IMG/VR virus record: IMGVR_UViG_3300005253_000011
Location: 1-64,000 of that record
DNA: 64,000 nucleotides
Reading direction: 5' to 3' (one strand)
Source: a virus
In this document: piece by piece, positions 35,350-63,352 of the stretch
Layout: each line of letters opens with the position of its first letter
Numbering within the stretch: the first letter of the stretch is position 1
Made by a program: the position numbers and the translations under genes
Notes under the pieces: generated by a model
What the model was told of the DNA's origin: nothing
Seen by the model: the letters and a program-made list of their open reading frames with translations, nothing else
The model's database searches: none

Positions 35350-35844
35350 ATGCCAGTAATTTTAAGGCCAATAAAGGAAAGATTTTTTGAAAAGATCAAT
35401 AAAAATCCAATAACGGGATGTTGGAACTGGACTGCTCACAAGAGTAAGAGTGGTTATGGCTACATTTCAGTAACTGGTGATAGAGTACGCCGGGCTCATA
35501 GAGTATCTTACGAATTATTCGTAGGGCCTATAAAACCTGGATTATTCATTTGCCATAAATGTGATAATCGTGGCTGTGTTAATCCTGATCATTTATTCAT
35601 GGGAACGCATCTGGATAATATGGCTGATATGGTTAAAAAGGGTAGAGTAAAACTTAGTGTAAATACTCAATTCAAACCAGGCCACATCCGTAATCGTGTA
35701 TTATCAGATGATATTGTTCGTAAGATAAGACGTGAATTAGCAAAGGAGGAACTTACTTCGGTAAAAATAAGTAAAATATTTGGAATCGGCGTTGATACTG
35801 TACGGGATATTAAAGCTGGAAGATCTTATTCCGAAATTACTTAG
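35350..35844 (+). CDS. HNH homing endonuclease
   Basis: GCWNW...GYG...RAHRVSYEL...ICHKCDNRGCVNPDHLF.GTH.DN. Confidence 0.9.
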   Translation: MPVILRPIKERFFEKINKNPITGCWNWTAHKSKSGYGYISVTGDRVRRAHRVSYELFVGPIKPGLFICHKCDNRGCVNPDHLFMGTHLDNMADMVKKGRVKLSVNTQFKPGHIRNRVLSDDIVRKIRRELAKEELTSVKISKIFGIGVDTVRDIKAGRSYSEIT

Positions 35845-35868: not shown

Positions 35869-35899
35869 TTGCACAATCCAATTTTTATTTGTAATTTTG
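35869..35899 (+). promoter_or_regulatory. promoter of the tmRNA precursor
   Basis: TTG-N20-TAATTTTG directly upstream of the acceptor piece. Confidence 0.6.
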
Positions 35900-35902
35900 T
35901 CC

Positions 35903-36311
35903 CAGTCCTTTGATGATTGATATGTTGAAAGGCATTTGGACATGGGTTCGATTCCCATACACTCCACTAGAAAAGTCCAACCGGTAGCCAGAAAGAGTAT
36001 ATTCTGCTGGTGTCTATTCGGCTCTGGCCTTGGGGGATGATTCACTGCCACGGTATCCTGTTGAGGAACAGGTAATCCCACGGATAAGGTGAATATTCCT
36101 CCCCCCTTGCAAAAGGGTAAGTTACAATTTTGTAAGATACGGGGTGTACCGGCTTTTGACAGTGCTAGAGTAGGATATCAGGAGAAGACTAGCTAATTAA
36201 CAGGCGAAAATGTTAAATTAATTCCTCATGGCAACTTCAAGGAAGCAGCCTAGCTAGGAGCCCGGGTCCCATGACCTCCAGGATAAGATCGGGAAGGGTG
36301 GGTCCCCCGGG
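35903..36311 (+). ncRNA. ssrA: circularly permuted (two-piece) tmRNA
   Basis: The acceptor piece (T-arm ATGGG-TTCGATT-CCCAT, ACACTCC-A ending at 35966) lies upstream of the coding piece that starts GGGGTGTACCGGCTTTTGAC at 36141. The 7-bp acceptor stem includes G3.U70. Tag frame 36203-36253 reads GENVKLIPHGNFKEAA*. Outer ends are approximate. Confidence 0.88.
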
Positions 36312-36330
36312 TAAACTTAAAACGTGATAA

Positions 36331-37047
36331 ATGAAGAAACAACTTTTGCAATTACAAGGTCGGTCCAGAACCATTACATCCTATTTGGATAATCTGAACA
36401 TCAACGCAGACGTAGTAGAACAGTACAACAAGCTTGGAAATCAAGGTCTTGTCCATTGGAAAGAGTGGAGAGACATTATGCAGGATGAAGAGAAGTACAA
36501 AGCTCTGTCTCCCATCGAGCAACAAACACTGCATGAGAATTCCAGGTCCTACACTCAAATGCTTACTGAGCTTGATAATGAGGTTAAATATCTTACTAAT
36601 ACCAAGCATTCCCTGGCCCTGGCCGATTGCCTCAATCACATCCTTTCAGCTAATCAGCTGTTAGACAAACTTGTAGATATTTATGGTGGTCGTGATGGAG
36701 CCTTCAGTTTCACTAAACTCAAGCACGTCAGACAAAAAGGCTGGGACAAGACTGGATATAAAGACAAAGTATTCAATCTGGCCACAGAGCTGGATCTGTT
36801 GACTGAAGATTTCGGTAATCTTCTGAATACTGAGGAAAAAATGAATTTTGTCCAAACTACAGTAGACGCATTAATGAATTACATTTATGTATCCTTTGTA
36901 CAATCGCTAGCATGGCTTAACAGTGAATATGATCGTATAGAGCAGCAAGGGATGCCGGAAGCAGGAGAATTTAAGCTCCCTGAGATCCAGGTACCTAAAG
37001 TACCAGAGGATGGCGAAAGTGATCAGTCAGAAAAACCTAAGGAGTAA
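36331..37047 (+). CDS. hypothetical protein
   Basis: 238-aa helical ORF. Confidence 0.65.
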   Translation: MKKQLLQLQGRSRTITSYLDNLNINADVVEQYNKLGNQGLVHWKEWRDIMQDEEKYKALSPIEQQTLHENSRSYTQMLTELDNEVKYLTNTKHSLALADCLNHILSANQLLDKLVDIYGGRDGAFSFTKLKHVRQKGWDKTGYKDKVFNLATELDLLTEDFGNLLNTEEKMNFVQTTVDALMNYIYVSFVQSLAWLNSEYDRIEQQGMPEAGEFKLPEIQVPKVPEDGESDQSEKPKE

Positions 37048-40172: not shown

Positions 40173-40361
40173 ATGAAAAGAAGATTTGTAATTTACAAGA
40201 ACACAGTACTTGAAGTAATACACTCACCATATGCTGCAGCATGCCAAGCTTGTTTTTTCCATAACAGGTGCGCGTTATCTGAGCCGATGGAAGAAAGAGT
40301 TGGTCATGCGTGTACGGATGATGATACTCATTATGTTAAAGTCGGAAAACTTTTAAAATAA
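40173..40361 (+). CDS. small Cys-containing hypothetical protein
   Basis: 62 aa with CxxC; coupled to neighbours. Confidence 0.5.
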   Translation: MKRRFVIYKNTVLEVIHSPYAAACQACFFHNRCALSEPMEERVGHACTDDDTHYVKVGKLLK

Positions 40362-41326
40362 TGCCTACATACTCAACATTTAACCCCGCAGCCACGGATA
40401 CTCATGTCATTATCGATGAGTATGGTATGGCTGTGATTAAAGGAGATTCTGAATCTCGAAGGGATTCCCCATGGAGAACTGCCGCAGGATACAAAGCCTG
40501 GGGTGATCATGCTCTTTATACAGCAGCCATACATGGACTTCATTTTAATAATCAAGGCTGTATACGATTCCGCGATGGGAAGTATGAATATCGCCGGCAT
40601 CCAGCGCATGCTTGGGGTAGTGATATGTCCAGGGATCATGTAGCCGCATTACTCCTCCTGGTTCATTTTGGAGTTGAAGGTGTCCGCTTTGGATCTATGT
40701 ATTTACTCAGAAATATGATCAAGTTCACAAAATGGAAGATCGGTCCCAATGCCTCATTCACTATCGATATGTGGTGCTGGATGAAGGGTATCCTCAACAA
40801 ACGTTGGAGAACTCTGTTCTATATGATCACTATTCCGTATATATCTGTGGTCGCACGGTGGAATGCCATACTACTCAAGAAGGGTAATTTCACTGTTCCG
40901 GATCTCCAGCAGCATGATTTTGTATACAGGAGAATCAATCACGACGTCACAGAGGAGCAGGACAAACTCAGGAAGCGGATGTTTCCATACTACGCCCTTA
41001 CGGGGATGGCATGGATGAATCATATCAACCCTGATAGCCCAGGCAAGCGCTGGCTGTCTAAAATCATCCGGGGGATGTGTGGTGCCCATAACTACCTTGT
41101 GCGTCTCCTGACGGACGATATGACCGTTACAAAGGGTCAGGTCATCATGTGGGTAGAAATGACTGGAGCGCCCTTCTCAGTGCTCATGAATGAAGCCACA
41201 AGCAGAGATATCAGGTTCCTGACTCTGGAGGAGGGGGAACATAACAGACTTTATGGAGATTTATTAATAACCATCTGGAACGAAAAACATCCAGAAGATC
41301 AGATTAGAGAAAGGAAAATATTATGA
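40361..41326 (+). CDS. hypothetical protein
   Basis: 321-aa ORF, no recognised motif. Confidence 0.65.
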   Translation: MPTYSTFNPAATDTHVIIDEYGMAVIKGDSESRRDSPWRTAAGYKAWGDHALYTAAIHGLHFNNQGCIRFRDGKYEYRRHPAHAWGSDMSRDHVAALLLLVHFGVEGVRFGSMYLLRNMIKFTKWKIGPNASFTIDMWCWMKGILNKRWRTLFYMITIPYISVVARWNAILLKKGNFTVPDLQQHDFVYRRINHDVTEEQDKLRKRMFPYYALTGMAWMNHINPDSPGKRWLSKIIRGMCGAHNYLVRLLTDDMTVTKGQVIMWVEMTGAPFSVLMNEATSRDIRFLTLEEGEHNRLYGDLLITIWNEKHPEDQIRERKIL

Positions 41327-41719: not shown

Positions 41720-42184
41720 ATGAAGAAATACGTAATAGTTGATATTGACGGCACTATAGCTCACAATCCTATTCGCCAGGCTAAGATCCTCCAGAAGCTG
41801 GAGATTACTCCTATTGAGGAAATGCCATGGGCAGAGTTATTTGAGGATTGTTTGATGGATACGCCCATTTGGCCGGTCATTGATTTAATGCTTGCAATAG
41901 CTGATAAGTACCATGTTGTATTCTGCACCAGCCGGGATATTGATTTTAGAGATAAAACCCGGATTTGGATTGATACGTATACCGGTTTAATTTGTGCTCC
42001 CCTGCTTATGCGGAAGTCTATAAATGATTATCGATCAGATAGCATCATTAAACCGGAGCTATTGGTGAGAGCCGGGATCACCATTAATAATACAGCCTTC
42101 ATCCTGGAGGATAAGAACTCCATGGTTGCTACCTGGAGAGAACTTGGATTTACTGTTTTACAACCTATCAATAACGAATATTAA
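41720..42184 (+). CDS. HAD-family phosphatase (polynucleotide kinase 3'-phosphatase-like)
   Basis: VIVDIDGTIA, CTSR, LLMRK..DYRSD..IK and LEDK motifs as in the T4 PseT phosphatase domain. Confidence 0.85.
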   Translation: MKKYVIVDIDGTIAHNPIRQAKILQKLEITPIEEMPWAELFEDCLMDTPIWPVIDLMLAIADKYHVVFCTSRDIDFRDKTRIWIDTYTGLICAPLLMRKSINDYRSDSIIKPELLVRAGITINNTAFILEDKNSMVATWRELGFTVLQPINNEY

Positions 42185-42198
42185 AAAACACAACACAA

Positions 42199-42621
42199 AT
42201 GGAATTAATTAAATTATTTTTATGGTCACTATGGGTGACCACTGTTATCGCCGGTATTGGCGTAATCGCTGATCTCTGGTTAATTAACTTTAAGTTCAAA
42301 CCCTGGCTCAAGCCTAAATGGTTATGGAACCTGGTTGAGCTTGTGGCTATATTTGGCCTGATTAACTGTAGGGGGTGGTCTCCACTTCCCTGGTGGCATA
42401 TGGCCCCATTATATGCTTCTATGGTTTTTGTCTGGTGGGCGGTGCATGATTGCTGGCTGGGATGGGGACTTAATGAGGGTCCTTTCTTTTTAGGTCAGAG
42501 CAAATGGGACCGGTTCTTTTTCCGGATCTTCAACCAATTCGGGTTGCCGGCTGGGCTTAACTTCCTTATTGTTAAACTATTCTGGGGCTTCTTAGCAGCC
42601 GCCGCATTCTTTTCATTATGA
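42199..42621 (+). CDS. multi-pass membrane protein
   Basis: Several hydrophobic Trp-rich segments. Confidence 0.6.
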   Translation: MELIKLFLWSLWVTTVIAGIGVIADLWLINFKFKPWLKPKWLWNLVELVAIFGLINCRGWSPLPWWHMAPLYASMVFVWWAVHDCWLGWGLNEGPFFLGQSKWDRFFFRIFNQFGLPAGLNFLIVKLFWGFLAAAAFFSL

Positions 42622-43103
42622 AAAAATTAAGTAGAAAACTATTAACGTTCGTATTATTGGCAACTTTATTAAGTTGTAAGTGTTACCTACAACAGCTTCC
42701 AACACAGTTGGTATATGTTGATTCTAATTGCATCGCAATGATTCCGGATTATTTACCTGCAGTTACGGTATTGGGTAATTGTGATGATGATGTAGTTACT
42801 CAAACACCCCCAGCCGGCACAATCATGGATGAACCTTATGGGACTGTAACGATCAAAGCGATAGATGAATTCCAGAATGCTGATTCTATTGTATTTGATA
42901 TAATCAGAGTGGATAATATTGCGCCCGTACTAACTATGGACACCACTTTGATAAATGCCTATGTTCCACCGGTGAGTGTTGATTCTATGATCCTGGTAAC
43001 CATAACCGGTCCAGGAGATGCGGGTACCTTCGGTGCTCTTACAAAACCCGGGAAACACGTTGTTATAATGGATGATCGACAATTTAATAAATATATGCAA
43101 TGA
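42618..43103 (+). CDS. lipoprotein with HYR/Ig-like repeat
   Basis: Lipobox LLSC; IPDY....V..NC.....TQTP.AGT....VTI.A.D...N...D..AP. Confidence 0.6.
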   Translation: MKKLSRKLLTFVLLATLLSCKCYLQQLPTQLVYVDSNCIAMIPDYLPAVTVLGNCDDDVVTQTPPAGTIMDEPYGTVTIKAIDEFQNADSIVFDIIRVDNIAPVLTMDTTLINAYVPPVSVDSMILVTITGPGDAGTFGALTKPGKHVVIMDDRQFNKYMQ

Positions 43104-45149: not shown

Positions 45150-45224
45150 TAGCGGGAGATGGATTCGAACCACCAGCCATCAACTTATCAGGCTGGTGCT
45201 CTGACTATGCTGAGCTATACCTAT
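45150..45224 (-). pseudogene. degenerate tRNA-Ile(GAT) with mispaired acceptor stem
   Basis: D arm GCTC/GAGC, loop CTGATAA and T arm GGTGG-TTCGAAT-CCATC are present; acceptor ATAGGTA/TCCCGCT has 3 mismatches. Confidence 0.65.
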
Positions 45225-45344
45225 AAGCGAGCATGTCACTCGCTAATTTATCAGCGCACTCATCACATATTGTAAGTGGCTTGATAAGATGCGGGATATA
45301 CTTTTTTCCGCACTTAACACATTTTCTTGTATAATCTTCCATAG

Positions 45345-45417
45345 AGCTGAAGAGAGGATTCGAACCCCTGGCCAGTTCCTTACAAGGGAACAGCTCTACC
45401 AACTGAGCTACTTCAGC
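45345..45417 (-). tRNA. tRNA-Thr(TGT)
   Basis: Full cloverleaf: GCTGAAG/CTTCAGC, anticodon loop CTTGTAA; CCA not encoded. Confidence 0.92.
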
Positions 45418-45508
45418 ATTGCCGGGTTGAAAACTACGCCATTTAAACCTCCCCCGGCGGGACTGGAGTTTTGCTCCACTCATCCCATAAATTTGAGCTG
45501 TACAGATC

Positions 45509-45667
45509 TTAATATGGCCTCTTGAAGATCCCATACCCACTTTCGAGTATTAGAACCAGCTCCCAGCCCTCATGACCAAATTCGTTCAATTTCTCCCGAA
45601 GCAACCTGTTGTCGTTTCGATGCATGTACATTGTGTTGTAATTCCATCTTTTCTTGAATAATCTCAT
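45509..45667 (-). CDS. DUF4177-like small protein
   Basis: W.Y......L.EKLNEFG.EGWELV...FKRP. Confidence 0.55.
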   Translation of the reverse strand: MRLFKKRWNYNTMYMHRNDNRLLREKLNEFGHEGWELVLILESGYGIFKRPY

Positions 45668-46058
45668 CGTTTTATATTTTAGTCTGCAATCGTTGCAAAT
45701 ATTAGATCCACATATAATACTTCCGATATCTGGCACATAATGTGACCACTAGCGAAAGCCTTGCTTCCTTCAAAGTCTTCCAGGTCGCCATGCTATCATC
45801 TTCATCCATCATTGGGATCGTCATCGATGGATCGCCGTCTTTTAAACATAGTATTCCGTACATTATTTTAGTTTTGTGAGTGCGATTAATACTGATTCTA
45901 CTTCTTCCATGCCAACCGGATACTCCCCCTCATGAGTGATGTTACTGAGTTCGTCAATTAAATGATAATCAAACTCCCAACTATTGTACCAGTCACCTTT
46001 GTTAAAGTCGACATGCATTGGCCGCATGCCTCAAGTCTTTTAGTTTTCCCATAGTCTG

Positions 46059-46334
46059 TTATTCAAAACCGCCGTATGTAACTACTCTGGAGACTTCCTT
46101 CTCACACACCGTACATATCTGTATATCAGTGTACTTAGCTTTGTGAAGGTAACCCCCAGCGACATATTCATTCTCTTCTCTTACATGCTTGTGAGGACAG
46201 ATACCCTGTAATTCCTTTAGAAGCTCTCGTACCGTAGTCTCTGCGGTAATAGTCTCATCTTGTAAAGTTTTAATGTGGTTTCTATAACACACTATCTGTT
46301 TAATAAGATTCGCTCGTCTCTCCTTCTTTTTCAT
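46059..46334 (-). CDS. hypothetical protein (CPH...CxxC)
   Basis: 91-aa ORF. Confidence 0.55.
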   Translation of the reverse strand: MKKKERRANLIKQIVCYRNHIKTLQDETITAETTVRELLKELQGICPHKHVREENEYVAGGYLHKAKYTDIQICTVCEKEVSRVVTYGGFE

Positions 46335-46360
46335 CGTTTTACCTTTAATAATAAGTTATG

Positions 46361-46433
46361 TAGCCCCACGGAGAATCGAACTCCGGTATTCAGCATGAAA
46401 AGCTGACGTCCTGGTCCACTAGACGACAGGGCC
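46361..46433 (-). tRNA. tRNA-Glu(TTC)
   Basis: Cloverleaf GGCCCTG/TGGGGCT, anticodon loop TTTTCAT, T arm CGGAG-TTCGATT-CTCCG. Confidence 0.88.
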
Positions 46434-46787
46434 ATTCCTATAACCATTTACATTCACTTATCTTGGCTCGGCAAGACTGCCGTTTACCATCAATCTTAAC
46501 TGCCTTCCCATCTACGTGAGAGTAATTGGGATAAAAGGGGATCGCCCAGACCATATACTCCCGGTCCTCATACATGAATCTCTGGTACATTACTGGTTTC
46601 CTACCCATTATCTCATTTTGTTATCCGTAAGGAATTCCGTCAACCTCTCTCCCATCTTCTCAACATCATCATGTGTGAATCCTTTCTCCATCATGACATC
46701 AGTGAATGATTGCCAGCGCCCAGCTACGAAATGATCGTAGTCTGAAATGATTTCTAAAACTTGTGCATCCATAATCTTAATTATTAG

Positions 46788-46828
46788 TGCCAAGGTGAGG
46801 AGTCGAACCCCCATACCCGGTCCCTGGC
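46788..46828 (-). ncRNA. mini-tRNA-like element (acceptor stem + T arm, no D or anticodon arm)
   Basis: GCCAGGG-ACCGGGTA-TGGGGG-TTCGACT-CCTCA-CCTTGGC-A. Confidence 0.6.
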
Positions 46829-46850
46829 TACTCCTAGAAGTATCGCAATG

Positions 46851-46925
<75 letters not shown>

Positions 46926-48285: not shown

Positions 48286-49118
48286 TGCTCCCCTCACGTG
48301 CGTGTGTGCGCTCTTTATCCTATTATTCATACAATATCATATCATTTTGTACTATTGCTCATACATTATCGCATATCGGGATACGCAATAGCACCGTTAA
48401 CAGCACCGACAATGATAACGGTTCGATAGAATCGTTCTAAATAAGCCTGAATAACCTATTTACAGGTCTGTAGCGCGTTTGTGTATCATAACGCTACAGT
48501 TGACTAAGCTCTTAGTTTGTTTTTTAACATTTGCTCTGCAGCCCCCGGCGCACTAAGGACACACGTGGTTGTACGCACTCAATTATAACTATTTCATCAT
48601 CTAAGAACCATTCTAAATAAGGTCAGCAACACACTCACTATCAGCGGGATACAACGCCGGCTATCTGCTAACTTACTGGCCTGTTGTATTTTAACCTTCC
48701 AGTATTTATTACGTAATTGCTCCCAGTTCATTGACATATTGAGAGCGCGACCGGCAAGCACCGGACGTAAGCAGGGCAGGCAGCCAAAATTGAAGAGATA
48801 CACTATAGACCAGCACACGCCGCTGGCAGTGTTAACCACAGAGATGGTTACGAGATCCCGGGAACACATAGCGCACCGGAACAATAAGACAGAGGTATAA
48901 GGCCTGCAAAGTTAGACGGTTAAACAAGACTATTCAGATGGTGAGGATATATTCTTTTATTACCCCTTACGGGTCTTATACTTCAATGACGAATAGTCTA
49001 CTAATTATTACATATAATAAAACCTCATAACTCTAGTAACATGGTATTGCGGTAACCAGTATAGAGTGTGCATACTCTATGCGTACGGTTTAAAACGGGG
49101 ATTCGCATCCCTTTGACA

Positions 49119-49160
49119 GCCAGTATGGTACTCGCTTAAGTTCGCATCTTAAGCAGGGCG
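49119..49160 (+). ncRNA. mini-tRNA-like intergenic element 1
   Basis: GCCAG-TATGGTA-CTC-GCTTAAG-TTCGCAT-CTTAAGC-AGGGC. Confidence 0.7.
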
Positions 49161-49188
49161 CGACGTTTAACCAATTTAATATAACATT

Positions 49189-49404
49189 ATGAAAAAATTT
49201 GCTTTTAATGGCCGTAACTATCAGATAGAGAACGGTCTGGTTCACTCTGTAGATAATTCACAGGATTTTACAACATTAGATCCTGTTTACAGGGGTGACA
49301 ATGTGATCCTAGACGGTCACTGTGATGCACTTGGTTTTAAATTGTATGACAGGCCTTCAGGGATACGTGCGTATGGTAATCAGCTTGGATCACGCTCAAA
49401 ATAG
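49189..49404 (+). CDS. early hypothetical protein
   Basis: 71 aa, flanked by elements 1 and 2. Confidence 0.65.
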   Translation: MKKFAFNGRNYQIENGLVHSVDNSQDFTTLDPVYRGDNVILDGHCDALGFKLYDRPSGIRAYGNQLGSRSK

Positions 49405-49445
49405 CCTGTATGGTACTCGCCTGAGTTCAAATCTCAGGCAGGGCA
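49404..49445 (+). ncRNA. mini-tRNA-like intergenic element 2
   Basis: GCCTG-TATGGTA-CTC-GCCTGAG-TTCAAAT-CTCAGGC-AGGGC. Confidence 0.75.
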
Positions 49446-49596
49446 CAAACGTTTAACTAAATTAAATATTATGAAAGATTATTATCAATCAGAACTGCTG
49501 AGTGTACAGCTGCAAGTTGAAGAACTTTCTTATTACTTACAGACTATACAAACAGTTTAATTATTCCTATTAATAAGTAACTAACAAACTAGTAAC

Positions 49597-49773
49597 ATGG
49601 ATTATTTAACAGAAGTACGCAACAATTTACAGGCCGCTAAAGATCGCAAAGCGATTGCAATAGCTGAAGAGAACCGCAAACAACGCGGTGCAAAGTTTGG
49701 TATTATATTGCTGATAGCTGTAATGTTCACCGTTATCATATTATTTGGCGATAATATAGCCAATTGGTGTTAA
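49597..49773 (+). CDS. small membrane-anchored early protein (58 aa, not in ORF track)
   Basis: MDYLTEVRNN...FGIILLIAVMFTVIILFG; its stop abuts element 3. Confidence 0.6.
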   Translation: MDYLTEVRNNLQAAKDRKAIAIAEENRKQRGAKFGIILLIAVMFTVIILFGDNIANWC

Positions 49774-49816
49774 CCCGTATGGTATACAGGGACAGGTTCG
49801 ACTCCTGTCCCGGGTT
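49772..49816 (+). ncRNA. mini-tRNA-like intergenic element 3
   Basis: AACCCG-TATGGTA-TACAG-GGACAGG-TTCGACT-CCTGTCC-CGGGTT. Confidence 0.8.
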
Positions 49817-49840
49817 CGACGTTTAACCAAATCAAATATT

Positions 49841-50044
49841 ATGAAAAGAACATCTATTTATACCTGTAAGACTTACAAAGGCATTAATCCTGGCAGCACT
49901 ATTTATATTGATTTAGATAGTCAGTATATGTTTACAGTTAGCAGAGATGAAAAACAGCTAACATATTATCCGACATTCGACCGAGCTTTACAGTATGTGA
50001 CTGAGTATCTGAGAATGAACGGTGTACAATTAGAAATTATTTAA
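49841..50044 (+). CDS. early hypothetical protein
   Basis: 67 aa. Confidence 0.6.
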   Translation: MKRTSIYTCKTYKGINPGSTIYIDLDSQYMFTVSRDEKQLTYYPTFDRALQYVTEYLRMNGVQLEII

Positions 50045-50059
50045 CCAATATTTAAAATT

Positions 50060-50233
50060 ATGAAAACATACAAATTTGAAATTATTGCCACTATCAAAAA
50101 GATAGTAGAAGTAGATAGTGAGGACATGCAAACAGCTGAAGAGCAGGCCAATGAGTTATTCAATCCAAATAATGATGGATCTGAAGAATTTTATGGTCAA
50201 GAATCGTTCCTTATTAGCGTTTACCACAAATAG
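50060..50233 (+). CDS. early hypothetical protein (57 aa, not in ORF track)
   Basis: MKTYKFEIIATIKKIVEVDSED..AEEQA; its stop abuts element 4. Confidence 0.6.
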   Translation: MKTYKFEIIATIKKIVEVDSEDMQTAEEQANELFNPNNDGSEEFYGQESFLISVYHK

Positions 50234-50273
50234 CCAGTATGGTACTTGCCTGGGATCGTTTCCCAGGCTGGCA
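50233..50273 (+). ncRNA. mini-tRNA-like intergenic element 4
   Basis: GCCAG-TATGGTA-CTT-GCCTGGG-ATCGTTT-CCCAGG-CTGGC. Confidence 0.7.
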
Positions 50274-50299
50274 CGACGTTTAACCAAACTATATCAATT

Positions 50300-50545
50300 A
50301 TGGAAACTCCAAATTTACATGCATTAAAATGCCATTATTTAGGCCCGACTGGTTACAAATCAGCACGTATCAGCATTCAATCATTACGTTTCAGGCAGAG
50401 AATAGTGATCCCTCAAATTTCTGATAATAATTGGGCTGATTCAATTAAGTATTTAAAAGAGCGCGGTTTCAATATTATTGGACAAGCTGAATATCCCGGC
50501 AAAGGCTGGCTGCTTCTGTCTGATACGTTTGAACCATTGAAGTAA
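50300..50545 (+). CDS. early hypothetical protein
   Basis: Start reassigned to METPNLHAL; YLGPT..K.ARI motif. Confidence 0.65.
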   Translation: METPNLHALKCHYLGPTGYKSARISIQSLRFRQRIVIPQISDNNWADSIKYLKERGFNIIGQAEYPGKGWLLLSDTFEPLK

Positions 50546-50587
50546 GCCTGTATGGTATCTGGGACAGTTCGAATCTGTCCCCAGGCA
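50546..50587 (+). ncRNA. mini-tRNA-like intergenic element 5
   Basis: GCCTG-TATGGTA-TCT-GGGACAG-TTCGAAT-CTGTCCC-CAGGC-A. Confidence 0.85.
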
Positions 50588-50626
50588 CAATTATTCCTTA
50601 TTATTTGTACCTAACATTTTAGTAAC

Positions 50627-50848
50627 ATGAAACTATTACAAAAGAGATTGATGGAGGCGTTGGAAATATGCGCTGAGAATCACAGTACAAAATTGACCCT
50701 GAATCACCTGATGGGTAAAGATTCTGTACCGAGCGCACAGCCGCTGGTGATCCATAATTGTGTACCTGCTGTTATTGATAAACTTAAAACAGCTGGATTT
50801 ATGCTTGGCATGAGTGAATATGGAATGACAGTTGATCACCTGGGATAG
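50627..50848 (+). CDS. early hypothetical protein
   Basis: 73 aa. Confidence 0.65.
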   Translation: MKLLQKRLMEALEICAENHSTKLTLNHLMGKDSVPSAQPLVIHNCVPAVIDKLKTAGFMLGMSEYGMTVDHLG

Positions 50849-50851
50849 TAA

Positions 50852-50895
50852 AACCCGTATGGTATCCGCAGGGGTTCGATTCCCCTGCCAGATGC
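50852..50895 (+). ncRNA. mini-tRNA-like intergenic element 6 (outer stem divergent)
   Basis: AACCCG-TATGGTA-TCC-GCAGGGG-TTCGATT-CCCCTGC. Confidence 0.65.
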
Positions 50896-51011
50896 AATTT
50901 GGCTAATTAGGGTGATACCTAGCATCCACTCACATTGAGATCGTTCGTTAGGAGCGTCCCTGTGAAGCCGAATTTTCCTAAATTAATAGTTTTAACCAAA
51001 AAACAGTAAAA

Positions 51012-51224
51012 ATGGCAAAAAGAAGGATTATTAACAGTAGAAGGGTCGCCCGGGGCGCAAAGTTCGGTGGTGGATCAAGTTCAAAGTATGCTGAAAAGAT
51101 CGCGCAACAAAAGCACGGCAGATACAGTGAAAATTCACCGATGAGTGTTCATGACGGTGGAATTGGCCTGAGTGTGAACGAAACGAACAGGCGTAGGTTT
51201 GACTCTCATAAAAAGGAGGACTAA
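51012..51224 (+). CDS. small basic early protein
   Basis: 70 aa, R/K/G-rich. Confidence 0.6.
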   Translation: MAKRRIINSRRVARGAKFGGGSSSKYAEKIAQQKHGRYSENSPMSVHDGGIGLSVNETNRRRFDSHKKED

Positions 51225-51307
51225 TCAATGACTGTATGTATATTCGCTGGAATTTTTATAGCTGCTTATTTATTGATAAGCGCAGTTTTTAGTATCTTTG
51301 AAGGATA

Positions 51308-51350
51308 GCCTGTATGGTACAGGGGTGTGGTTCGAATCCACACCCAGGCA
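51308..51350 (+). ncRNA. mini-tRNA-like intergenic element 7
   Basis: GCCTG-TATGGTA-CAGG-GGTGTGG-TTCGAAT-CCACACC-CAGGC-A; begins in the TAG of a 26-aa hydrophobic ORF (51228-51308). Confidence 0.85.
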
Positions 51351-51380
51351 CGAATTTTAATTTAAAATTGGAGGTAAATT

Positions 51381-51620
51381 ATGACACGTAAAATTAAAGA
51401 GATTGCAGCAGAAATCCGTAAGGACTGGAAGAAAGTCAGTATTCATGCTGAACCCTACCTGGGTGCTATGGAGGTCATTGAATCCGCAGATAATGAGTAT
51501 TATTGGGATTCTGCCGCTTCAGTCACTCGTTATTTCTTGAGTAATGCTACCACCTGGAAAGGTGAGGTCGCTCGCCGGATCAAGAAGGAACTGAATGAAA
51601 TGATAGAGGGGATCTATTAA
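51381..51620 (+). CDS. phage hypothetical protein
   Basis: IA.EIR.DW..V...A.PYL.AM......Y..DSA..V..YFL.NA.TW.GE.ARRIK.EL resembles a phage family I recall but cannot name. Confidence 0.7.
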   Translation: MTRKIKEIAAEIRKDWKKVSIHAEPYLGAMEVIESADNEYYWDSAASVTRYFLSNATTWKGEVARRIKKELNEMIEGIY

Positions 51621-52534
51621 TGGATTGGGTAGAATTTGTTATTCAAAACTGGGCTATGCTGGATCTTAGATTCAGATGGTCTAAACCCAAGCATCCCAGG
51701 TATGACTGGAGAGGAGAGTATATCCACCATATGAATAGATGGCCGGGTTACGAAAGAAACAGACTCTACATTCCTATTTCGTTCATGTCTGATGCCGGTT
51801 ACATTGACTTGATCAAGAAATCATTTCATGTGACCAGTGATATTGAAGGGTCGAAAGCCAAACTTAAAGAGGTATTTGATTACCTCACTGAACACGCTGG
51901 ATAATATTTAGGCGGTTCGATATAGTTTTATTAATCTTTAAAAACAAATGCGTATGAGAAAAGTAATTTTTAGTAAATCATCAGAAACAGTTATCCATGT
52001 CGATGATATTGGTAACTACAGTATCACTGGTTTTGAGAGTAAGGACGGCACCCTAAAGGGTGTACTGGTACTTATTGACAACAGCGTAATCGGAGTAACT
52101 TTGGTGAAGGGGGAGCCAGACACGGATCACACTATGCCAGGGCGTCATCCGTACATTAACGGCGGTGTTCAGATTCCTGCTTTTATAAGGGAACTACAAA
52201 ATGAATTTGATTTCTTTGTATTTCAAAGCATGGCTGAATTCTTTGACTGGATCGCTGGATAATGGGACGCGAGAAGAAATCTAATGAAGAGCTGGGTTAC
52301 ACTATCCCAGTTATGCGGAGACTTGAGAAGGGTAGATATGCTTCTGCCTTTGCTAAGTCTCTTGAGCCAGATAAGAATGGACAGATTAAAGTGAGAACTT
52401 CCGATCTACGAAGTACTAGCTGGTTAGGTACATCGGTCATTCACGTGCCCGAAGGATTCGAAATTAAGGAACCGCCAGCACCAAAAGGCAAGGATGAGGC
52501 TGGCCGGTATTTTAGTGGATCAGATCCCATTTAA
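51620..52534 (+). CDS. three early hypothetical ORFs (51620-51904, 51948-52262, 52262-52534)
   Basis: Coupled or closely spaced ORFs with AT-rich leaders. Confidence 0.6.
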
Positions 52535-52577
52535 CCCTGTATGGTACTATGGTCAGGTCCGACTCCTGACCAGGGTT
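52533..52577 (+). ncRNA. mini-tRNA-like intergenic element 8
   Basis: AACCCTG-TATGGTA-CTATG-GTCAGG-TCCGACT-CCTGAC-CAGGGTT. Confidence 0.8.
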
Positions 52578-52613
52578 CAATTGAGTAATGTTGCTCAATT
52601 TAAACTGTTTTAT

Positions 52614-60273: not shown

Positions 60274-60777
60274 TTATTGTATTTTATTGAAAGTTAATCC
60301 TTTTGTTTGTTTATACTTACCCTGTAAAACTTTATGCGCATTTTGTAGTTGTAATCCATATGATCTAGCGGCGTCAGACATAGAAGGATGAGTTGATAGA
60401 AGTTTTCCTGTTTTATAATCATATACATTTACAGGAATTGGTTTCATGCCCGAATTTGGGGAACGTTTCCATAATCCTAATGCTATAGCGTGCTGCATAT
60501 TTTCTGATTGTGTTACCCACTCTAAATTGGAAACATTATTATTAAATTTATTTCCATCTTTATGATTAATTTGCGGCTTATTATCCGGATTTGATATAAA
60601 AGCTTCTGCAACTAATCGAGAAATATATTTATAGTGTGTTTTATTTTGTTTACGTAATCCTACTCTGTAATATCCCCAATTAGTGGGTAATGGTTTTAGA
60701 CATTTATTACGAAACAAACTAAATATCTTTCCTGAATCCTCTATTAGGTAATTTTCAAATCCCTTTATTGATTTCAT
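60274..60777 (-). CDS. NUMOD4-HNH homing endonuclease
   Basis: IKGFENYLI, QINHKDGNKFNNNVSNLEW. Confidence 0.9.
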   Translation of the reverse strand: MKSIKGFENYLIEDSGKIFSLFRNKCLKPLPTNWGYYRVGLRKQNKTHYKYISRLVAEAFISNPDNKPQINHKDGNKFNNNVSNLEWVTQSENMQHAIALGLWKRSPNSGMKPIPVNVYDYKTGKLLSTHPSMSDAARSYGLQLQNAHKVLQGKYKQTKGLTFNKIQ

Positions 60778-62879
60778 CCTATTATTTTAGTTGCTCCTAA
60801 TTCGTCTGCTACCGCCGTTAATGTCGATGAATACAAACTATCGATATGTGGCGAATGGGTGATCACGTAAATTGATTTCCCTTCCTCAGCTTTTGCCCTA
60901 ATTAAATCAAATACTGCAGCCTCACCAGCTTCGTCGAGCCCTTCAAAAATTTCGTCCATGATCAATATGTCAATATTACTATCAGCACTAACCAGGGTAT
61001 ACATGGCAAAGATCAGAACAATATCTAAACGTTGTTTCTGGCCTCCGGAGAACTCTTTATACTCCTTATTGAATTTCTTTCCAACAGAGCATACGGTGGT
61101 GAATGGCTTGGAAGCTTTGGTCAAGTCAATACTGAACTCAATGGATACTCCCAGACGATCCGAATAAGGCTTCACATACTCATTCAAATCATTCAACATA
61201 GCCTTGAAGACGAAGGATGGGAGACCAGCAGCAACAAACCCCTTCTTAGTCCACCATTGGTGCAGGTTCATTTCATATGCAATGTCCTCCAGTGTGATAT
61301 TCATCTCATCCAGCCCCTTATCAAATTTATCATACTTATCAATCAATTGATCAATAGTATGCGAAAACTTAGGTGGCTCCTCTTTCTGTGCTGTCTCCAG
61401 GGATGATATCATCACTTCAATCTGACCTGTATAAACCTTAATCTCATTCTCATTGCTCGTCACCTTCTCAGTTTTCTTGGTAATTTCACCGGCTTCTATT
61501 TGCAGGGCCATCTCTTTTTTTGTCCCCTCTGTGAACATTCGCTTAACATCCTGACCATCCTCTTCAGCTTTATTGTGTGCGTCCTTGGCTTTTATAGCAG
61601 CATTTCCAGCGTCTCCCAGTTCTTTAATCGCCCCTTTCCGGATATCCTTTAGTTCCGGTAGGTTAGAAATCGGTGGTTTTTCTGCCTTCTTTGCCTCTAA
61701 TTTGGCGTCCGCGGCTTCCAATTGTGGAATATACGTATCCACTATAGAATTCTTAACAGCTGTAACATTAGCTAATGGGAGTTTCTGCTCACAGGCGTAA
61801 CATATATCCTTAACAGCCTTAATCTCCTCAGCCTTTTTATTCGTCAACTCTTGTAATTCATCCTTTAATCCGGATACGGCTCCAGCCTTATCAATCACCC
61901 ACTTATCACACCGCTTCTTCTCGATATTGACATTAGTTTCAGCAACTACATCAGCCCTACTGGCAATGCCTAATCTATTTCCGGCCTCTACATGCGCATT
62001 ATATGGAACTTCAAGAGTCTTCTCCAAGGCATTATACTGCCGCTCCAGCTCATCCATCTCTGTCTTAAACTTATCAAACGCCTCAGCATCCCATTTGTCA
62101 ATTTCTACTGTAAGTTCCTCACTTTCGAACTTACATGCAGTGAGATCATCCCTGGTGTTGGCGATATCCTCAGAGATCTTATTACAGTTCTCTACTTTTT
62201 TATCCTCAAACTCCTCCAGTAGCCTAGTCTGTTCATTGGTTTCAGTTGTAAGAGCTTCCATCTGTAAAGTCAGGCTATTCTGCTCTCCCTCTGCTTTCAG
62301 ACAGTCAACAGAAAGCTCCAAAAGTTTCGCACCAGCTTTGGCCTTACCATCATTGATGAATGCTGTCTCAAATAACCTTTCAAAGAGATCTCTCTTATCC
62401 TTATTATCTGATTCTACCAGTTTAGGCATACGCTGCCCAAATAGAATGGATGCCATAAAAGTTTGTGAATCGATACCCAGAAGGGTAATGATCTGTGCCT
62501 GGACATCCTTTTTATGGACACCGATCTGATTCTGGCCTCTGATAACCAAGGCATCTCTGCCTATACCTTCTCCGCCTGACCAGCCTATGGTCCTAACTAT
62601 CCAATAATCACGACCATCAACCTCAATGGTAGTCTCTGTATAGGTCCCACGGAAAGCATCAGTACGAGAATCTTCCCATGTTGGGATCTTCTCATTGGTG
62701 GTATCCTTTAGGTTTGTCCCGTAGATACACCACACCACGACTTCAAATAAGGTAGTTTTCCCTGCCCCATTCTCGCCCTTTACTAGGTTAAGGCCCGGAC
62801 GGTCCAGATTTACCTCAGTACGCTCAGCAAGGCTACGGAAGCCTTCTGCAACGACGTTCTTTATCTTGATTATTTTCAT
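60774..62879 (-). CDS. sbcC: SbcC/Rad50 (gp46-like) ATPase
   Basis: GENGAGKTT, CYAC zinc hook in coiled coil, FSGGQ signature, ILIMDE, ITH. Confidence 0.92.
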   Translation of the reverse strand: MKIIKIKNVVAEGFRSLAERTEVNLDRPGLNLVKGENGAGKTTLFEVVVWCIYGTNLKDTTNEKIPTWEDSRTDAFRGTYTETTIEVDGRDYWIVRTIGWSGGEGIGRDALVIRGQNQIGVHKKDVQAQIITLLGIDSQTFMASILFGQRMPKLVESDNKDKRDLFERLFETAFINDGKAKAGAKLLELSVDCLKAEGEQNSLTLQMEALTTETNEQTRLLEEFEDKKVENCNKISEDIANTRDDLTACKFESEELTVEIDKWDAEAFDKFKTEMDELERQYNALEKTLEVPYNAHVEAGNRLGIASRADVVAETNVNIEKKRCDKWVIDKAGAVSGLKDELQELTNKKAEEIKAVKDICYACEQKLPLANVTAVKNSIVDTYIPQLEAADAKLEAKKAEKPPISNLPELKDIRKGAIKELGDAGNAAIKAKDAHNKAEEDGQDVKRMFTEGTKKEMALQIEAGEITKKTEKVTSNENEIKVYTGQIEVMISSLETAQKEEPPKFSHTIDQLIDKYDKFDKGLDEMNITLEDIAYEMNLHQWWTKKGFVAAGLPSFVFKAMLNDLNEYVKPYSDRLGVSIEFSIDLTKASKPFTTVCSVGKKFNKEYKEFSGGQKQRLDIVLIFAMYTLVSADSNIDILIMDEIFEGLDEAGEAAVFDLIRAKAEEGKSIYVITHSPHIDSLYSSTLTAVADELGATKIIG

Positions 62880-63352
62880 TGTTTAAAATTTAAACCTGCG
62901 TTATTACCATATAATTCTAAAACTTTAGTATCATAAGCCCTGGCAGCTTCCTCAGCCGTCTCAAAATAACCAAGATGCAGCCTTTTGTTATTTATTCTAC
63001 ACCTGCTGGCAAAACAACGTGTGCGATTAGGGTAATAAGTTACGCCTTTATACCCGGACTTGGCCCATGTCTTTTTATTTTGATTATTCACCGAAGCAGT
63101 AGAATTTCTAAGATTACTTTTACAGTTATTTAAACCATTCCGGTCTATATGATCAACCTGAATACCTATAGGAGTATTCATTATTACTCGGTGCATACGT
63201 ACTGTCGTTTGTTTTCCTTCTGAACGGCTAATTCTACAAGCATAGAACACATCTTTATCCTTTTTAGCGTACCATTTGAACCAACTTAGATAAACATAAT
63301 CTTCGTCATCTACCTGAGTTACTTTACCTTGTGTAAGTTTAATCTGTTTCAT
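62876..63352 (-). CDS. HNH-AP2 homing endonuclease
   Basis: VDHIDRNGLNNCKSNLR; SGYKGV...HLGYFETAEEAARAYD. Confidence 0.9.
   Translation of the reverse strand: MKQIKLTQGKVTQVDDEDYVYLSWFKWYAKKDKDVFYACRISRSEGKQTTVRMHRVIMNTPIGIQVDHIDRNGLNNCKSNLRNSTASVNNQNKKTWAKSGYKGVTYYPNRTRCFASRCRINNKRLHLGYFETAEEAARAYDTKVLELYGNNAGLNFKQ

Follow-up and report, generated by a model that had tools for sequence, protein, structure and literature searches.

The window, i.e. the 64,000-nucleotide stretch of DNA analysed here, comprises positions 1-64,000 of IMGVR_UViG_3300005253_000011, an uncultured phage with a whole genome of 83,113 bp and a presumed host among the Bacteroidota. Eight small elements were claimed at 49119-52577 by a first-pass annotation, and all eight were located as described, on the + strand of a presumably early operon. 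Each element corresponds to the top half of a tRNA (~45 nt) without the anticodon arm. Across the eight copies, 10-12 of the 12 pairs of a composite acceptor and T helix are formed, the heptamer TATGGTA is invariant (8/8), the third and seventh bases of the 7 nt T-loop are C and T, respectively (8/8), and a 3' tail of the form N-C-R-A is kept (8/8). The same phage genome encodes tRNAs, a tmRNA and a PNKP-type phosphatase. The elements, together with a candidate ninth, are as follows:

Copy 1: 49119..49163, + strand; outer stem GCCAG/AGGGC (3/5 pairs), TATGGTA, linker CTC, T-stem GCTTAAG/CTTAAGC, loop TTCGCAT, tail GCGA; 28.2 bits; operon head, without a convincing upstream ORF
Copy 2: 49404..49448, + strand; outer stem GCCTG/AGGGC (4/5 pairs), T-stem GCCTGAG/CTCAGGC, loop TTCAAAT, tail ACAA; 43.8 bits; starts on the G of the TAG that ends ORF 49189-49404
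Copy 3: 49772..49819, + strand; outer stem (A)ACCCG/CGGGT(T), 12/12 pairs with a 13th A-U possible, T-stem GGACAGG/CCTGTCC, loop TTCGACT, tail TCGA; 41.4 bits; overlaps the TAA stop of ORF 49597-49773
Copy 4: 50233..50276, + strand; outer stem GCCA/TGGC, 11 bp helix, T-stem GCCTGGG/CCCAGGC, atypical loop ATCGTTT, tail ACGA; 40.1 bits; starts on the G of the TAG that ends ORF 50060-50233
Copy 5: 50546..50590, + strand; outer stem GCCTG/CAGGC, 12/12 pairs, T-stem GGGACAG/CTGTCCC, loop TTCGAAT, tail ACAA; 44.5 bits; begins immediately 3' of the TAA stop of the upstream ORF, which ends at 50545
Copy 6: 50852..50897, + strand; degenerate outer stem ACCCG/CAGAT (3/5 pairs; intact in the L007 orthologue), T-stem GCAGGGG/CCCCTGC, loop TTCGATT, tail GCAA; 36.8 bits; 3' of the TAG-TAA stops of ORF 50627-50848
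Copy 7: 51308..51353, + strand; outer stem GCCTG/CAGGC, 12/12 pairs, T-stem GGTGTGG/CCACACC, loop TTCGAAT, tail ACGA; 42.4 bits; starts on the G of the TAG that ends the hydrophobic 26-codon ORF 51228-51308
Copy 8: 52533..52580, + strand; outer stem (A)ACCCTG/CAGGGT(T), 12/12 pairs with a 13th possible, T-stem GTCAGG/CCTGAC, loop TCCGACT, tail TCAA; 58 bits; overlaps the TAA stop of ORF 52262-52534
Candidate ninth, variant element: 46788..46828, - strand; 7 bp acceptor GCCAGGG/CCTTGGC, short T-arm, tail ACTA

A covariance model built from copies of other phages plus copy 8 recovered exactly these eight elements from the whole 83,113 bp genome, with scores of 28-58 bits. TATGGTA occurs 28 times in this genome and is followed by a T-arm hairpin in these eight cases only. 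Within the window, GTATGGTA was found 13 times, compared with an expected 2.26 (sd 1.53), a count reached in 0 of 100 shuffles; eight of the 13 occurrences are the elements. The candidate ninth element, which was missed by the model, has an 8 nt GG-containing linker in place of TATGGTA and lies 22 nt past tRNA-Met, directly ahead of a small ORF. Its 7 bp stem is kept in the counterpart at the related phage locus L007 despite changes at three pairs.

The stem sequences quoted by the first-pass annotation are correct. The helix is complete (12/12 pairs) in copies 3, 5, 7 and 8, of which copies 3 and 8 could add a 13th A-U pair; the helix of copy 4 comprises 11 bp, its 3' strand being 11 nt in length. 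The weakness attributed to the outer stems of copies 1, 2 and 6 is borne out by their pair counts (10/12, 11/12 and 10/12, respectively). Single-sequence folding recovered the outer and inner architecture in copies 3, 4, 5, 7 and 8 only, and folding z-scores of the copies range from -1.1 to -3.9. The five loops listed previously are real, and that list omitted TTCGCAT (copy 1) and ATCGTTT (copy 4), both of which depart from the T-loop consensus. The outer stem, which corresponds to the acceptor, comprises no more than 4-6 bp, and the tail reads C-R-A instead of CCA. CGACGTTTAACCAA is present after copies 1, 3 and 4, and in a variant form after copy 2.

Stems that differ between copies yet keep pairing had been reported, and this covariation is seen both among the paralogues and in comparison with the orthologues of the related phage. 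In a family alignment of 109 distinct rows, gathered by a pattern fixing the heptamer and loop and then fitted to the model, 93.3% of cells are paired compared with 60.9% in shuffles (observed value reached in 0/500), a percentage that, like the heptamer and loop conservation, is partly ascertained because the retrieval pattern fixed these parts and the rows were model-fitted. When partners were slid in this 109-row alignment, paired cells fell to 40-50%; double changes were observed at 14 of its 15 pairs. An unselected test, with a pattern fixing the heptamer and loop only, yielded 85 distinct matches, 48 of which form 11 or more of the 12 helix pairs, compared with 0/85 for a displaced 3' strand control. 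Two further pairs covary although they lie outside the model (UA 78, CG 5, AU 4, UG 2 and other 2), identifying TATGGTA as a mini D-arm, namely a 2 bp hairpin with a UGG loop. Of 122 aligned rows, 113 have C at position 74 and 95 have A at position 76, and G-U exceeds A-C only 30 to 15 in the family. The covariation, that of the 2 bp mini-stem included, and the strand specificity of the motifs show selection acting on one strand in its folded form.

As previously claimed, seven of the eight elements start inside, or at most 4 nt from, the stop codon of the upstream ORF. The stop codon overlaps or adjoins the stem in 7/8 copies, and in five of the seven copies having an upstream ORF the acceptor stem opens with the last base of that codon. 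The next ATG lies 23-38 nt downstream for six of the eight copies. Not every gene of the operon is followed by an element: the units between elements contain 1-4 ORFs each, which contradicts the single-gene units proposed earlier. The 2 bp hairpin, the conserved N-C-R-A tail and the 1-4 genes between elements were absent from the first-pass annotation, as was a consequence of this placement, i.e. that a canonical RNase P cut at +1 would deprive the stop codon of its last base in 5/7 copies, leaving an ORF that ends in UA.

The syntenic operon of L007, a relative with 84% helicase identity, retains eight elements; they share the heptamer, loop and tail with those of the window and differ from them in their stems, in which pairing is retained. 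Between shared elements, ORFs C, D and E of the window are replaced by X, Y and A'' in L007, and BLAST segments break at the elements. Near-identical T-stems recur in copies 3 and 5, and in copy 4 and the first element of L007, while similar T-stems follow the paralogous ORFs A and A', so that the element appears to accompany its upstream ORF. The elements had been suggested to serve as recombination or shuffling points; cassette exchange at their boundaries is indeed visible between the window and L007, and may be promoted by the elements.

A strict pattern returned 83 viral loci, whereas 596 billion bases of cellular genomes yielded 11, the family being common among viral contigs and rare among cellular genomes. 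Members are carried by cultured mycobacteriophages (e.g. Mycobacterium phage George), and further members, in phages or prophages, were found on a Weissella scaffold and on Clostridia, Lachnospiraceae and Bacteroidetes MAG contigs. Their presence in phages and prophages of unrelated hosts suggests that whatever reads them is universal. No Rfam family, YrlA included, was matched, placing the elements outside known Rfam families, and no published description of the element family was found in the literature searched. The earlier interpretation is partly supported: it stands with respect to tRNA mimicry, covariation, Rfam novelty and boundary exchange, and falls with respect to single-gene units.

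tRNA-shaped signals between genes of a polycistronic RNA are shared with animal mitochondria, where stop codons overlap the cut site, U or UA remains and polyadenylation completes the stop. Those signals are functional decoding tRNAs, whereas the phage elements are unable to decode, and we know of no stop-codon completion mechanism in bacteria. MALAT1 mascRNA likewise forms a tRNA-like structure at the terminus of a longer transcript, from which cleavage first by RNase P and next by RNase Z, followed by CCA addition, yields a small tRNA-like RNA; it differs in being eukaryotic and single-copy, in keeping an anticodon-like stem and in having no tie to a stop codon. The tRNA-like domain of tmRNA resembles the elements in its acceptor stem, T-arm and reduced, (near-)stemless D region with UGG, and the Rfam permuted-tmRNA consensus contains ...aUGGuUUCGAC. 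However, the tmRNA halves are separated by an mRNA-like body, and alanine identity requires G3-U70, compared with C3-G70 in the window's copies. PeSLs of T4-type phages are repeated intergenic stem-loop cassettes that flank small early genes and mark modular shuffling points, in which they resemble the phage elements; they consist of a hairpin and an early promoter without tRNA features, whereas the phage elements have no promoter match.

Plant mitochondrial t-elements are also non-canonical tRNA-like folds inside mRNAs with a conserved T-arm. Their termini match 5' or 3' ends of mRNAs, which are ascribed to cleavage by RNase P and RNase Z; some of these ends fall inside reading frames, ccmC and nad6 being cases with the mRNA 3' end within the reading frame (Forner et al. 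2007, PMC1920247). The t-elements are ~74 nt, cloverleaf-like, organellar and present in few scattered copies (PMC1920247), whereas the phage elements are ~45 nt with a 2 bp D-arm, number eight per operon and are fixed at stop codons, their processing being a proposal. For M. smegmatis YrlA, cleavage of the tRNA-like module by RNase P RNA and acquisition of CCA have been reported (Chen et al. 2014, PMC4201824); YrlA shares with the elements a T-arm, D-arm and acceptor-like stem in a bacterial or phage RNA, but is a stand-alone ncRNA beside Ro60 with a Ro-binding helix. Mycobacteriophage L5 has a larger fold of tRNA-like form at 51,134-51,226, which may be linked to the 3' ends of the abundant stable Pleft RNA, ~90% of which were placed at 51,140-51,190 in PMC5712189, a paper from whose text the term 'tRNA-like' is absent. 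The highly expressed L5 right-end region is toxic to M. smegmatis, for which the stable Pleft transcript is the authors' simplest explanation (PMC5712189).

Judged from their sequence, the elements are mimics of the tRNA top half, with a 12 bp coaxial acceptor/T helix, a T-loop, a GG mini D-arm and a C74-like base. Action of RNase P and the 3'-end pathway is proposed because the features that have survived (the 12 bp stack, the T-loop/GG elbow, and the discriminator with C74) are those read by universal tRNA end-processing enzymes. The elements would be transcribed within the polycistronic mRNA of the operon, each folding as a miniature tRNA with a token D-arm and no anticodon arm. Host RNase P would then cut the 5' edge of each element, and the 3' edge would be set after N73/C74 by RNase Z, or by an endonuclease and exonucleolytic trimming, possibly with subsequent CCA addition. 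The transcript would thereby be split into 1-4-gene units with set mRNA ends, and a compact tRNA-like cap would be left in place or released, presumably to the benefit of the phage. On anatomical grounds, this reading of the elements as processing or 3'-end signals that divide the transcript is the likeliest and is given an about even chance of being correct. The weak outer stems (copies 1, 2 and 6), the non-T-loop of copy 4, the 4-6 bp outer stem, the C-R-A tail, the genes that no element follows and the G-U excess of only 30 to 15 argue against processing, and an upstream ORF ending in UA looks costly unless intended or compensated.

The stop codon lies in or abuts the stem in 7/8 copies and would be destroyed by a 5' cut in 5/7, which favours a reading in which the elements are unexcised 3'-terminal tRNA-like caps, with only the downstream side cut or with transcription or decay halting there. 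The fold would remain on the upstream mRNA with the stop codon intact in the stem base, blocking 3'-to-5' exonucleases and being transiently melted by terminating ribosomes. The apparent movement of elements with their upstream ORFs (A and A') and the abundant stable L5 RNA that seems to end at a tRNA-like fold are consistent with such caps; a plain GC hairpin, however, would give equal 3'-end protection, leaving the T-loop, mini D-arm and C74 unexplained, and we consider this reading unlikely. Defence nucleases are known to cut anticodon loops, which the elements lack, and the fixed stop-codon placement and co-orientation with genes would be unexplained if the mini-tRNAs, released or embedded, served in host takeover or counter-defence as decoys or sponges for RNase P, RNase Z, the CCA-adding enzyme, T-loop modification enzymes or acceptor-end-targeting defence toxins. 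This role is judged improbable, even with eight copies per transcript of a seemingly early operon, phage tRNAs, tmRNA and PNKP-type phosphatase suggestive of tRNA conflict, and the toxicity reported for the L5 right end (PMC5712189).

Exchange of ORFs between shared elements, with BLAST breaks at the elements, and the near-identical T-stems of different copies would also suit recombination or mobility modules that act chiefly as DNA and shuffle cassettes, the tRNA look being an inherited relic. Homologous exchange requires identity, though, and here the stems differ and only ~20 scattered bases are shared; moreover, any mosaic phage region is expected to exchange at intergenic boundaries, and the covariation and strand-specific motifs point to selection on the folded strand. 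The probability of this explanation is accordingly rated as low. By analogy with T4 RegA and RegB, a regulator and a nuclease of early mRNAs, the elements might be operators recognised by an RNA-binding regulator or nuclease that the phage encodes, being repeated cis-elements near translation starts (23-38 nt before ATG in 6/8 copies). This seems hardly probable: the family is spread over very different phages with hosts of different phyla, its conserved parts are universal tRNA features only, and a scan of 30 ORFs revealed no RNA-binding protein family. Intrinsic terminators or promoter-plus-hairpin cassettes, in keeping with GC-rich intergenic hairpins and a conserved box after copies 1-4, are disfavoured as extremely improbable, as none of the 5 terminator-like and 29 promoter-like sites (both close to shuffle expectation) lies in or directly after an element, and no U-tract terminator, sigma-70 promoter or following U-run was found at any of the eight copies.

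The elements belong to a widespread, uncatalogued phage RNA family, through which, as their anatomy suggests, host tRNA-trimming enzymes probably cut or cap phage messages. Because they are located at cassette boundaries, they also mark points of gene exchange, which they may promote.

The eight tRNA-like elements of the operon, which are ~45 nt long, lie on the plus strand and start at positions 49119, 49404, 49772, 50233, 50546, 50852, 51308 and 52533 (copies 1 through to 8), were all recovered where the first-pass annotation had placed them. The sequence GTATGGTA was shown to occur 13 times in the window, compared with 2.26 occurrences expected, a number that was reached in none of 100 shuffles. 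The heptamer TATGGTA, positioned between the outer, acceptor-like stem and the T-arm of each element, is present at 28 sites genome-wide and is followed by a hairpin at the eight elements only. R1, a covariance model of this mini-tRNA family built from 24 sequences (23 of which were derived from other viral contigs), returned exactly the eight copies originally described, and no others, when searched against the 83-kb genome (E-values of 2e-16 to 2e-6). The family layout represented by R1 comprises an outer stem, a mini D-arm of the form N-A-UGG-U-N', a linker of 2-5 nt, a T-arm and a terminal N-C-W/R-A; the family is also defined by a composite helix of 12-13 bp, co-orientation with genes and stop-codon placement.

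Each copy was parsed outward from the T-loop. The 3' strand of 12 nt (11 nt in copy 4) was found to pair first with the 6-7 nt preceding the loop and next with the 5-6 nt preceding TATGGTA, forming a single 12-bp coaxial helix whose 5' strand is broken by the heptamer and a linker of 3-5 nt. All 12 pairs are formed in copies 3, 5, 7 and 8, whereas copies 2 and 4 have 11 and copies 1 and 6 have 10. The bases before and after the loop are G and C, respectively, in all copies, corresponding to the G53-C61 closure, and the 7-nt T-loop consensus U54 U55 C56 R57 A58 is present in six copies, with copies 1 and 4 departing from it. The helix is followed in all eight copies by an N-C-R-A tail (ACAA, ACGA, TCGA, TCAA, GCGA or GCAA; never CCA), which represents a discriminator, a C74-like base and an A76-like base. 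Single-sequence folding reproduced the outer-plus-inner architecture in copies 3, 4, 5, 7 and 8 and preferred other pairings in copies 1, 2 and 6, consistent with the weak outer pairing previously ascribed to these three. RNAalifold analysis of the eight copies supported the inner stem, with compensatory changes at five of its seven pairs.

The stop codon of a co-oriented ORF adjoins or overlaps the element in seven of the eight cases. In copies 2, 3, 4, 7 and 8, i.e. five of the seven with an upstream ORF, the helix begins, at nucleotide +1, with the third base of UAG/UAA; the stop codon at copy 5 ends at -1, copy 6 is preceded by tandem TAG-TAA stops and copy 1 is located at the head of the operon. 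The next start codon is situated 23-38 nt downstream for six copies, and for copy 8 a start at 52605 or 52614 is suggested by the orthologue in the related viral contig L007. The spacer following copy 6 (50898-51011) is unusually long, with 116 nt to the start codon, and may hold another signal; it is conserved in L007, where a blastn segment covers 50584-51238 at 76%. A hydrophobic 26-codon ORF with a strong Shine-Dalgarno sequence (51228-51308, plus strand) has its last base at the first position of copy 7, and L007 carries a 54-codon ORF at the corresponding location.

Two types of leader were observed among the operon genes. The leader (C)GACGTTTAACCAA, followed by ~10 nt and an ATG, is present after copies 1-4 (49161-49188, 49447-49470, 49817-49840 and 50274-50299), and a shorter TTTAACCAA box precedes two ORFs without an element (leader sites also at 50040-50062 and 50985-51014). 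This leader is lineage-specific, being common to L007, and is not a feature of the mini-tRNA family. The second type, AATTATTCCT...TAACTAACA...TAGTAACATG, precedes three start codons (48990-49043, 49555-49600 and 50586-50629) and is likewise present in L007.

Comparison with L007, an IMG/VR contig of 54,855 bp whose helicase is 84% identical to that of the window, upheld the claim that the stems vary between copies while retaining their pairing. The syntenic operon of L007 also carries eight elements, flanked by ORFs whose proteins are 57-77% identical to their counterparts, and the heptamer and loop pattern are kept, as is the N-C-R-A tail in all eight. The stems are altered but remain paired, as exemplified by copy 6 (GCAGGGG/CCCCTGC in the window versus GCAGAGG/CCTCTGC in L007), the outer stem of which is degenerate in the window and intact in L007, and the T-stems of copies 5, 7 and 8 are wholly unlike those of their positional orthologues. 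Upstream of the shared ORF F, the two operons differ in gene content, the window having cassettes C, D and E where L007 has X, Y and a second paralogue of A, and BLAST segments between the two break at elements. These breaks fit the earlier suggestion that the repeats serve as recombination points, although such breaks would be expected at any intergenic boundary.

To place the elements in a wider context, viral contigs were searched with a pattern that fixes only the heptamer and loop, yielding at least 117 loci. Among the matches listed, the helix has at least 11 of 12 pairs in 48 of 85 distinct hits, compared with 0 of 85 when the 3' strand was displaced. R1 returned 156 matches (E-value ≤0.1) in 1.0 Mb of pattern-hit loci, often several per contig, and 21 further matches from 19 additional loci. 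In an alignment of 109 distinct rows, in which the stems and mini D-arm are the informative parts as the heptamer and loop were fixed at retrieval and the alignment was model-fitted, 93.3% of cells are paired, versus 60.9% for shuffles and 40-50% for slid partners, and double changes occur in 14 of 15 pairs. The first and last bases of the heptamer covary (UA in 78 rows, CG in five, AU in four, UG in two and other combinations in two), and its second and sixth positions hold A-U in 88 rows and U-A in a single row. Together, these two pairs identify TATGGTA as a mini D-arm of 2 bp with a UGG loop; since they lie outside the R1 model, their covariation is no artefact of fitting. Across 122 rows, C74 is a C in 113 and A76 an A in 95. 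The strand test gave 30 G-U versus 15 A-C combinations, a ratio to be read in light of the model itself favouring G-U. The seed alignment (A3; 96.8% paired) had been chosen for pairing and, being circular, was dropped as evidence.

Placement at stop codons also extends to the family: of 44 elements preceded by an ORF of 30 codons or more, 21 have a stop codon that starts 7 or 8 nt upstream of the heptamer, and in 42 the stop is TAA or TAG. One strict pattern matched 83 viral loci, whereas bacterial and archaeal genomes, 596 billion bases in all, gave 11; a good R1 match was obtained in six of these 11, located on Clostridia, Lachnospiraceae, Bacteroidetes and Thermoplasmatota MAG contigs and on a Weissella scaffold of 65,011 bp, which is taken to be the same contig as an IMG/VR viral record. 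The case for a family is drawn from helix pairing and the strict-pattern comparison, rather than from the number of loose-pattern loci, which is a lower bound. A pattern with reversed halves, tried as a random control, matched one and the same 30-nt stretch in over 119 viral contigs, most of them short (L205-L284 and beyond); because its matches share this one stretch, an unrelated conserved sequence with words in common, it is useless as a random sample. A sub-group (L030, L054, L069, L087, L067 and related contigs) combines the heptamer with a CTATT linker, a 5-bp T-arm and a poor outer stem (28-34 bits). Several of its contigs also carry a standard tmRNA, and these may or may not be the same kind of element.

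The window covers bases 1-64,000 of an IMG/VR virus record that is 83,113 bp long in all, with direct terminal repeats and a G+C content of 41%. Structural genes, including the portal gene, occupy the left 33 kb of the window on the minus strand, and a tRNA cluster is followed by ~2.2 kb of sparsely coding DNA and then, from 49.1 kb, by small plus-strand ORFs, a layout that suggests an early operon. Other tRNA-related features of the window are as follows.

35918-36253 (ARAGORN span 35876-36344), plus strand: probable circularly permuted (two-piece) tmRNA (ARAGORN and Rfam tmRNA_permuted)
45150-46922, minus strand: tRNA cluster (Rfam and ARAGORN)
46788-46828, minus strand: variant armless tRNA-like element, read from the sequence, 22 nt past tRNA-Met and with a small ORF immediately following

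A fourth tRNA, called by Rfam (45150-45224, minus strand; 43.2 bits), is absent from the ARAGORN calls. In the variant element, the acceptor is 7 bp long, the linker contains GG, the T-arm is short and the tail is ACTA; the element is missed by R1 and kept in L007, where three acceptor pairs are changed yet still pair.

No close cultured relative was found in the phage collection by blastn of the region or tblastn of the portal. The nearest cultured homologues of the helicase are from Flavobacterium psychrophilum phages (~30% identity), and a Shine-Dalgarno sequence is missing before most operon genes; together, these are weak hints of a Bacteroidota host. An R1 search showed the element to be absent from Fpv1 and from the uncultured record MW202489. 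Scans against Pfam and PHROG of 30 ORFs, other than the ~15 small ORFs of the operon, identified no RNase P, RNase Z or CCA-adding enzyme, and Ro60 was not among the proteins recognized in this general scan. An ORF encoding a PNKP phosphatase domain (41720-42184, plus strand; Pfam E-value 3e-19), with unassigned neighbours at 40361-41326, 42199-42621 and 42618-43103, may form part of an RNA-repair module alongside the phage tRNAs and tmRNA. Three HNH endonuclease ORFs (35350-35844, 60274-60777 and 62876-63352), of which one carries NUMOD domains and another an AP2 domain, are candidate free-standing homing endonucleases.

With regard to known RNAs, neither Rfam (gathering and E-value thresholds) nor ARAGORN called a canonical tRNA in 49119-52580, the only true tRNAs being those at 45150-46922. 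Like canonical tRNAs, the elements possess a 12-bp coaxial acceptor/T stack (10-12 of 12 pairs) and a 7-nt T-loop; unlike the cloverleaf with its anticodon arm, they have only 2-5 nt between the mini D-arm and the T-stem. The tRNA-like domain of tmRNA has a G3-U70 alanine identity pair, whereas the window copies have C-G at position 3 and no tag frame. No existing Rfam family matches the elements in searches up to an E-value of 10, in line with the novelty originally suggested, and no YrlA/bacterial Y RNA match was obtained in the region even at that value; chance-level hits comprised cow-rumen-1 (22.5 bits, minus strand), FopS (21.2 bits, minus strand) and a T-arm fragment of beta-tmRNA. In mitochondrial tRNA punctuation, the genes of a polycistronic transcript are separated by tRNA-shaped signals whose cut sites overlap stop codons; seven of the eight window elements adjoin or overlap stops, and the elements bound units of one to four ORFs instead of each single gene, several ORF pairs within these units overlapping start to stop. 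Plant mitochondrial t-elements are described, in passages of PMC1920247, as carrying a conserved T-arm motif, GGTTCRANYCC, in a non-canonical tRNA-like fold. This motif is exact in three of the eight copies (3, 6 and 7), the rest being off by 1-3 bases, some of which are stem-compensated. The ends of plant t-elements lie at mapped mRNA termini cut by RNase P and RNase Z. Full-text literature searches returned no account of anticodon-less tRNA mimics at phage stop codons; passages of one paper report over 10,000 candidate structured RNAs from IMG/VR without names, some of which are termed 'tRNA-like', and its supplements may hold the motif (PMC10690425). tRNA-shaped processing signals are an already known kind, represented by those of mitochondria, plant t-elements and mascRNA; what is new is the 45-nt anticodon-less form, the fixed stop-codon register, the multiplicity and the phage home.

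The conserved parts of the elements are the 12-bp stack measured from the T-loop/GG elbow, together with N73 and C74, which are exactly what the universal tRNA end-processing machinery reads and include nothing needed for decoding. Both RNase P and RNase Z act on minihelices of the acceptor/T type, and in bacterial RNase P RNA it is the P15 loop with which C74 pairs. The conserved anatomy, and its spread across phages of Actinobacteria, Firmicutes and Bacteroidota, favour a universal host reader over a phage-specific protein. Among the explanations considered, we rank first that the elements act as tRNA-like processing or 3'-end signals, and give this about an even chance of being correct. An intrinsic terminator was rejected, as none of five terminator-like sites coincides with an element and the tails continue from N-C-R-A into mixed sequence. 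A promoter cassette of the PeSL type was also rejected: the region contains 29 promoter-like matches versus 20.9 expected, and none lies directly after an element, in a scan for the sigma-70 consensus only that would miss a Bacteroidota-type promoter.

The main difficulty for processing is that a canonical cut would take the last base of the stop codon in five of the seven copies with an upstream ORF. Three outcomes can be envisaged: no 5' cut would be made, the element remaining as an unexcised 3'-terminal fold or 'cap'; the cut would be made only on untranslated mRNA; or non-stop mRNAs would be intended. The last is notable because the phage carries a permuted tmRNA. If the stop overlap were deliberate, RNase P would cut between the second and third base of UAG/UAA, turning each unit into a programmed non-stop mRNA; the phage tmRNA would rescue the ribosomes and either tag the early proteins or deliberately leave them undegraded, so that early genes would be switched off after transcription by a built-in timer. 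We consider such a post-transcriptional timer improbable. The tmRNA lies between ORFs 35350-35844 and 36331-37047, has a tag called by ARAGORN as ENVKLIPHGNFKEAA, ending ...KEAA, and scores 43.5 bits with Rfam tmRNA_permuted, compared with a cut-off of 47 bits and 48.6 bits for its counterparts in two relatives. Among viral records of at least 40 kb (L039 and L074 left out), a tmRNA is present in 11 of 31 with elements versus one of six without, a comparison in which the control is too small for significance and contig size is a confounder. Eight of these 11 tmRNAs are standard and exceed the Rfam cut-off, and three are permuted, all within the clade of the window. Co-occurrence of tmRNA and elements is only a lead, and tmRNA is not family-wide.

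Returning to the elements as processing or 3'-end signals, BLAST of one natural element showed dozens of Mycobacterium smegmatis phages to carry a stretch that spans its heptamer and T-arm, and the following features were located among them.

Mycobacterium phage George, record 50,804-50,854 (L196 725-775), minus strand: family member (R1 39.4 bits)
Phage L5, L197 125-175 and 829-930, minus strand: two tRNA-like folds, drawn by hand and by folding

Near the right end of the George genome, an unannotated ORF of 77 codons ends in TAA, and the element starts 3 nt beyond it. In L5, R1 detects T-arms only. The first L5 fold, in the gene 89/88 spacer, has an acceptor of 5 bp and a D-stem of 4 bp that carries a CGGU loop, together with a 12-position helix and a G-C tail; the second is a multi-branched fold of 93 nt (51,134-51,226). 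Passages of Dedrick et al. (2017; PMC5712189) describe a very abundant, stable L5 RNA transcribed from Pleft, with 3' ends at 51,140-51,190, whose encoding region is reported as toxic to the host. The term 'tRNA-like' is absent from the text of that paper, and it is from the coordinates, not from a finding of Dedrick et al., that the Pleft RNA would appear to end at the second of these folds. The presence of family members in cultured cluster-A mycobacteriophages, George and many others, opens the question of processing to bench work now.

Processing as proposed would mean that tRNA punctuation extends beyond organelles and that, as a widespread strategy, phages of many bacterial phyla use essential tRNA enzymes of their hosts to shape their own messages. 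The elements would then constitute a new, abundant and unannotated class of structured RNA in viral genomes, and would explain the short conserved 'non-coding' spacers of early regions. They would also be useful as a minimal natural substrate of ~45 nt in work on RNase P, RNase Z and the CCA-adding enzyme, and synthetic operons could take them up as a compact processing tag. Considered together with phage-encoded tmRNAs, the stop-codon overlap offers a link, open to testing, from mRNA processing to ribosome rescue.
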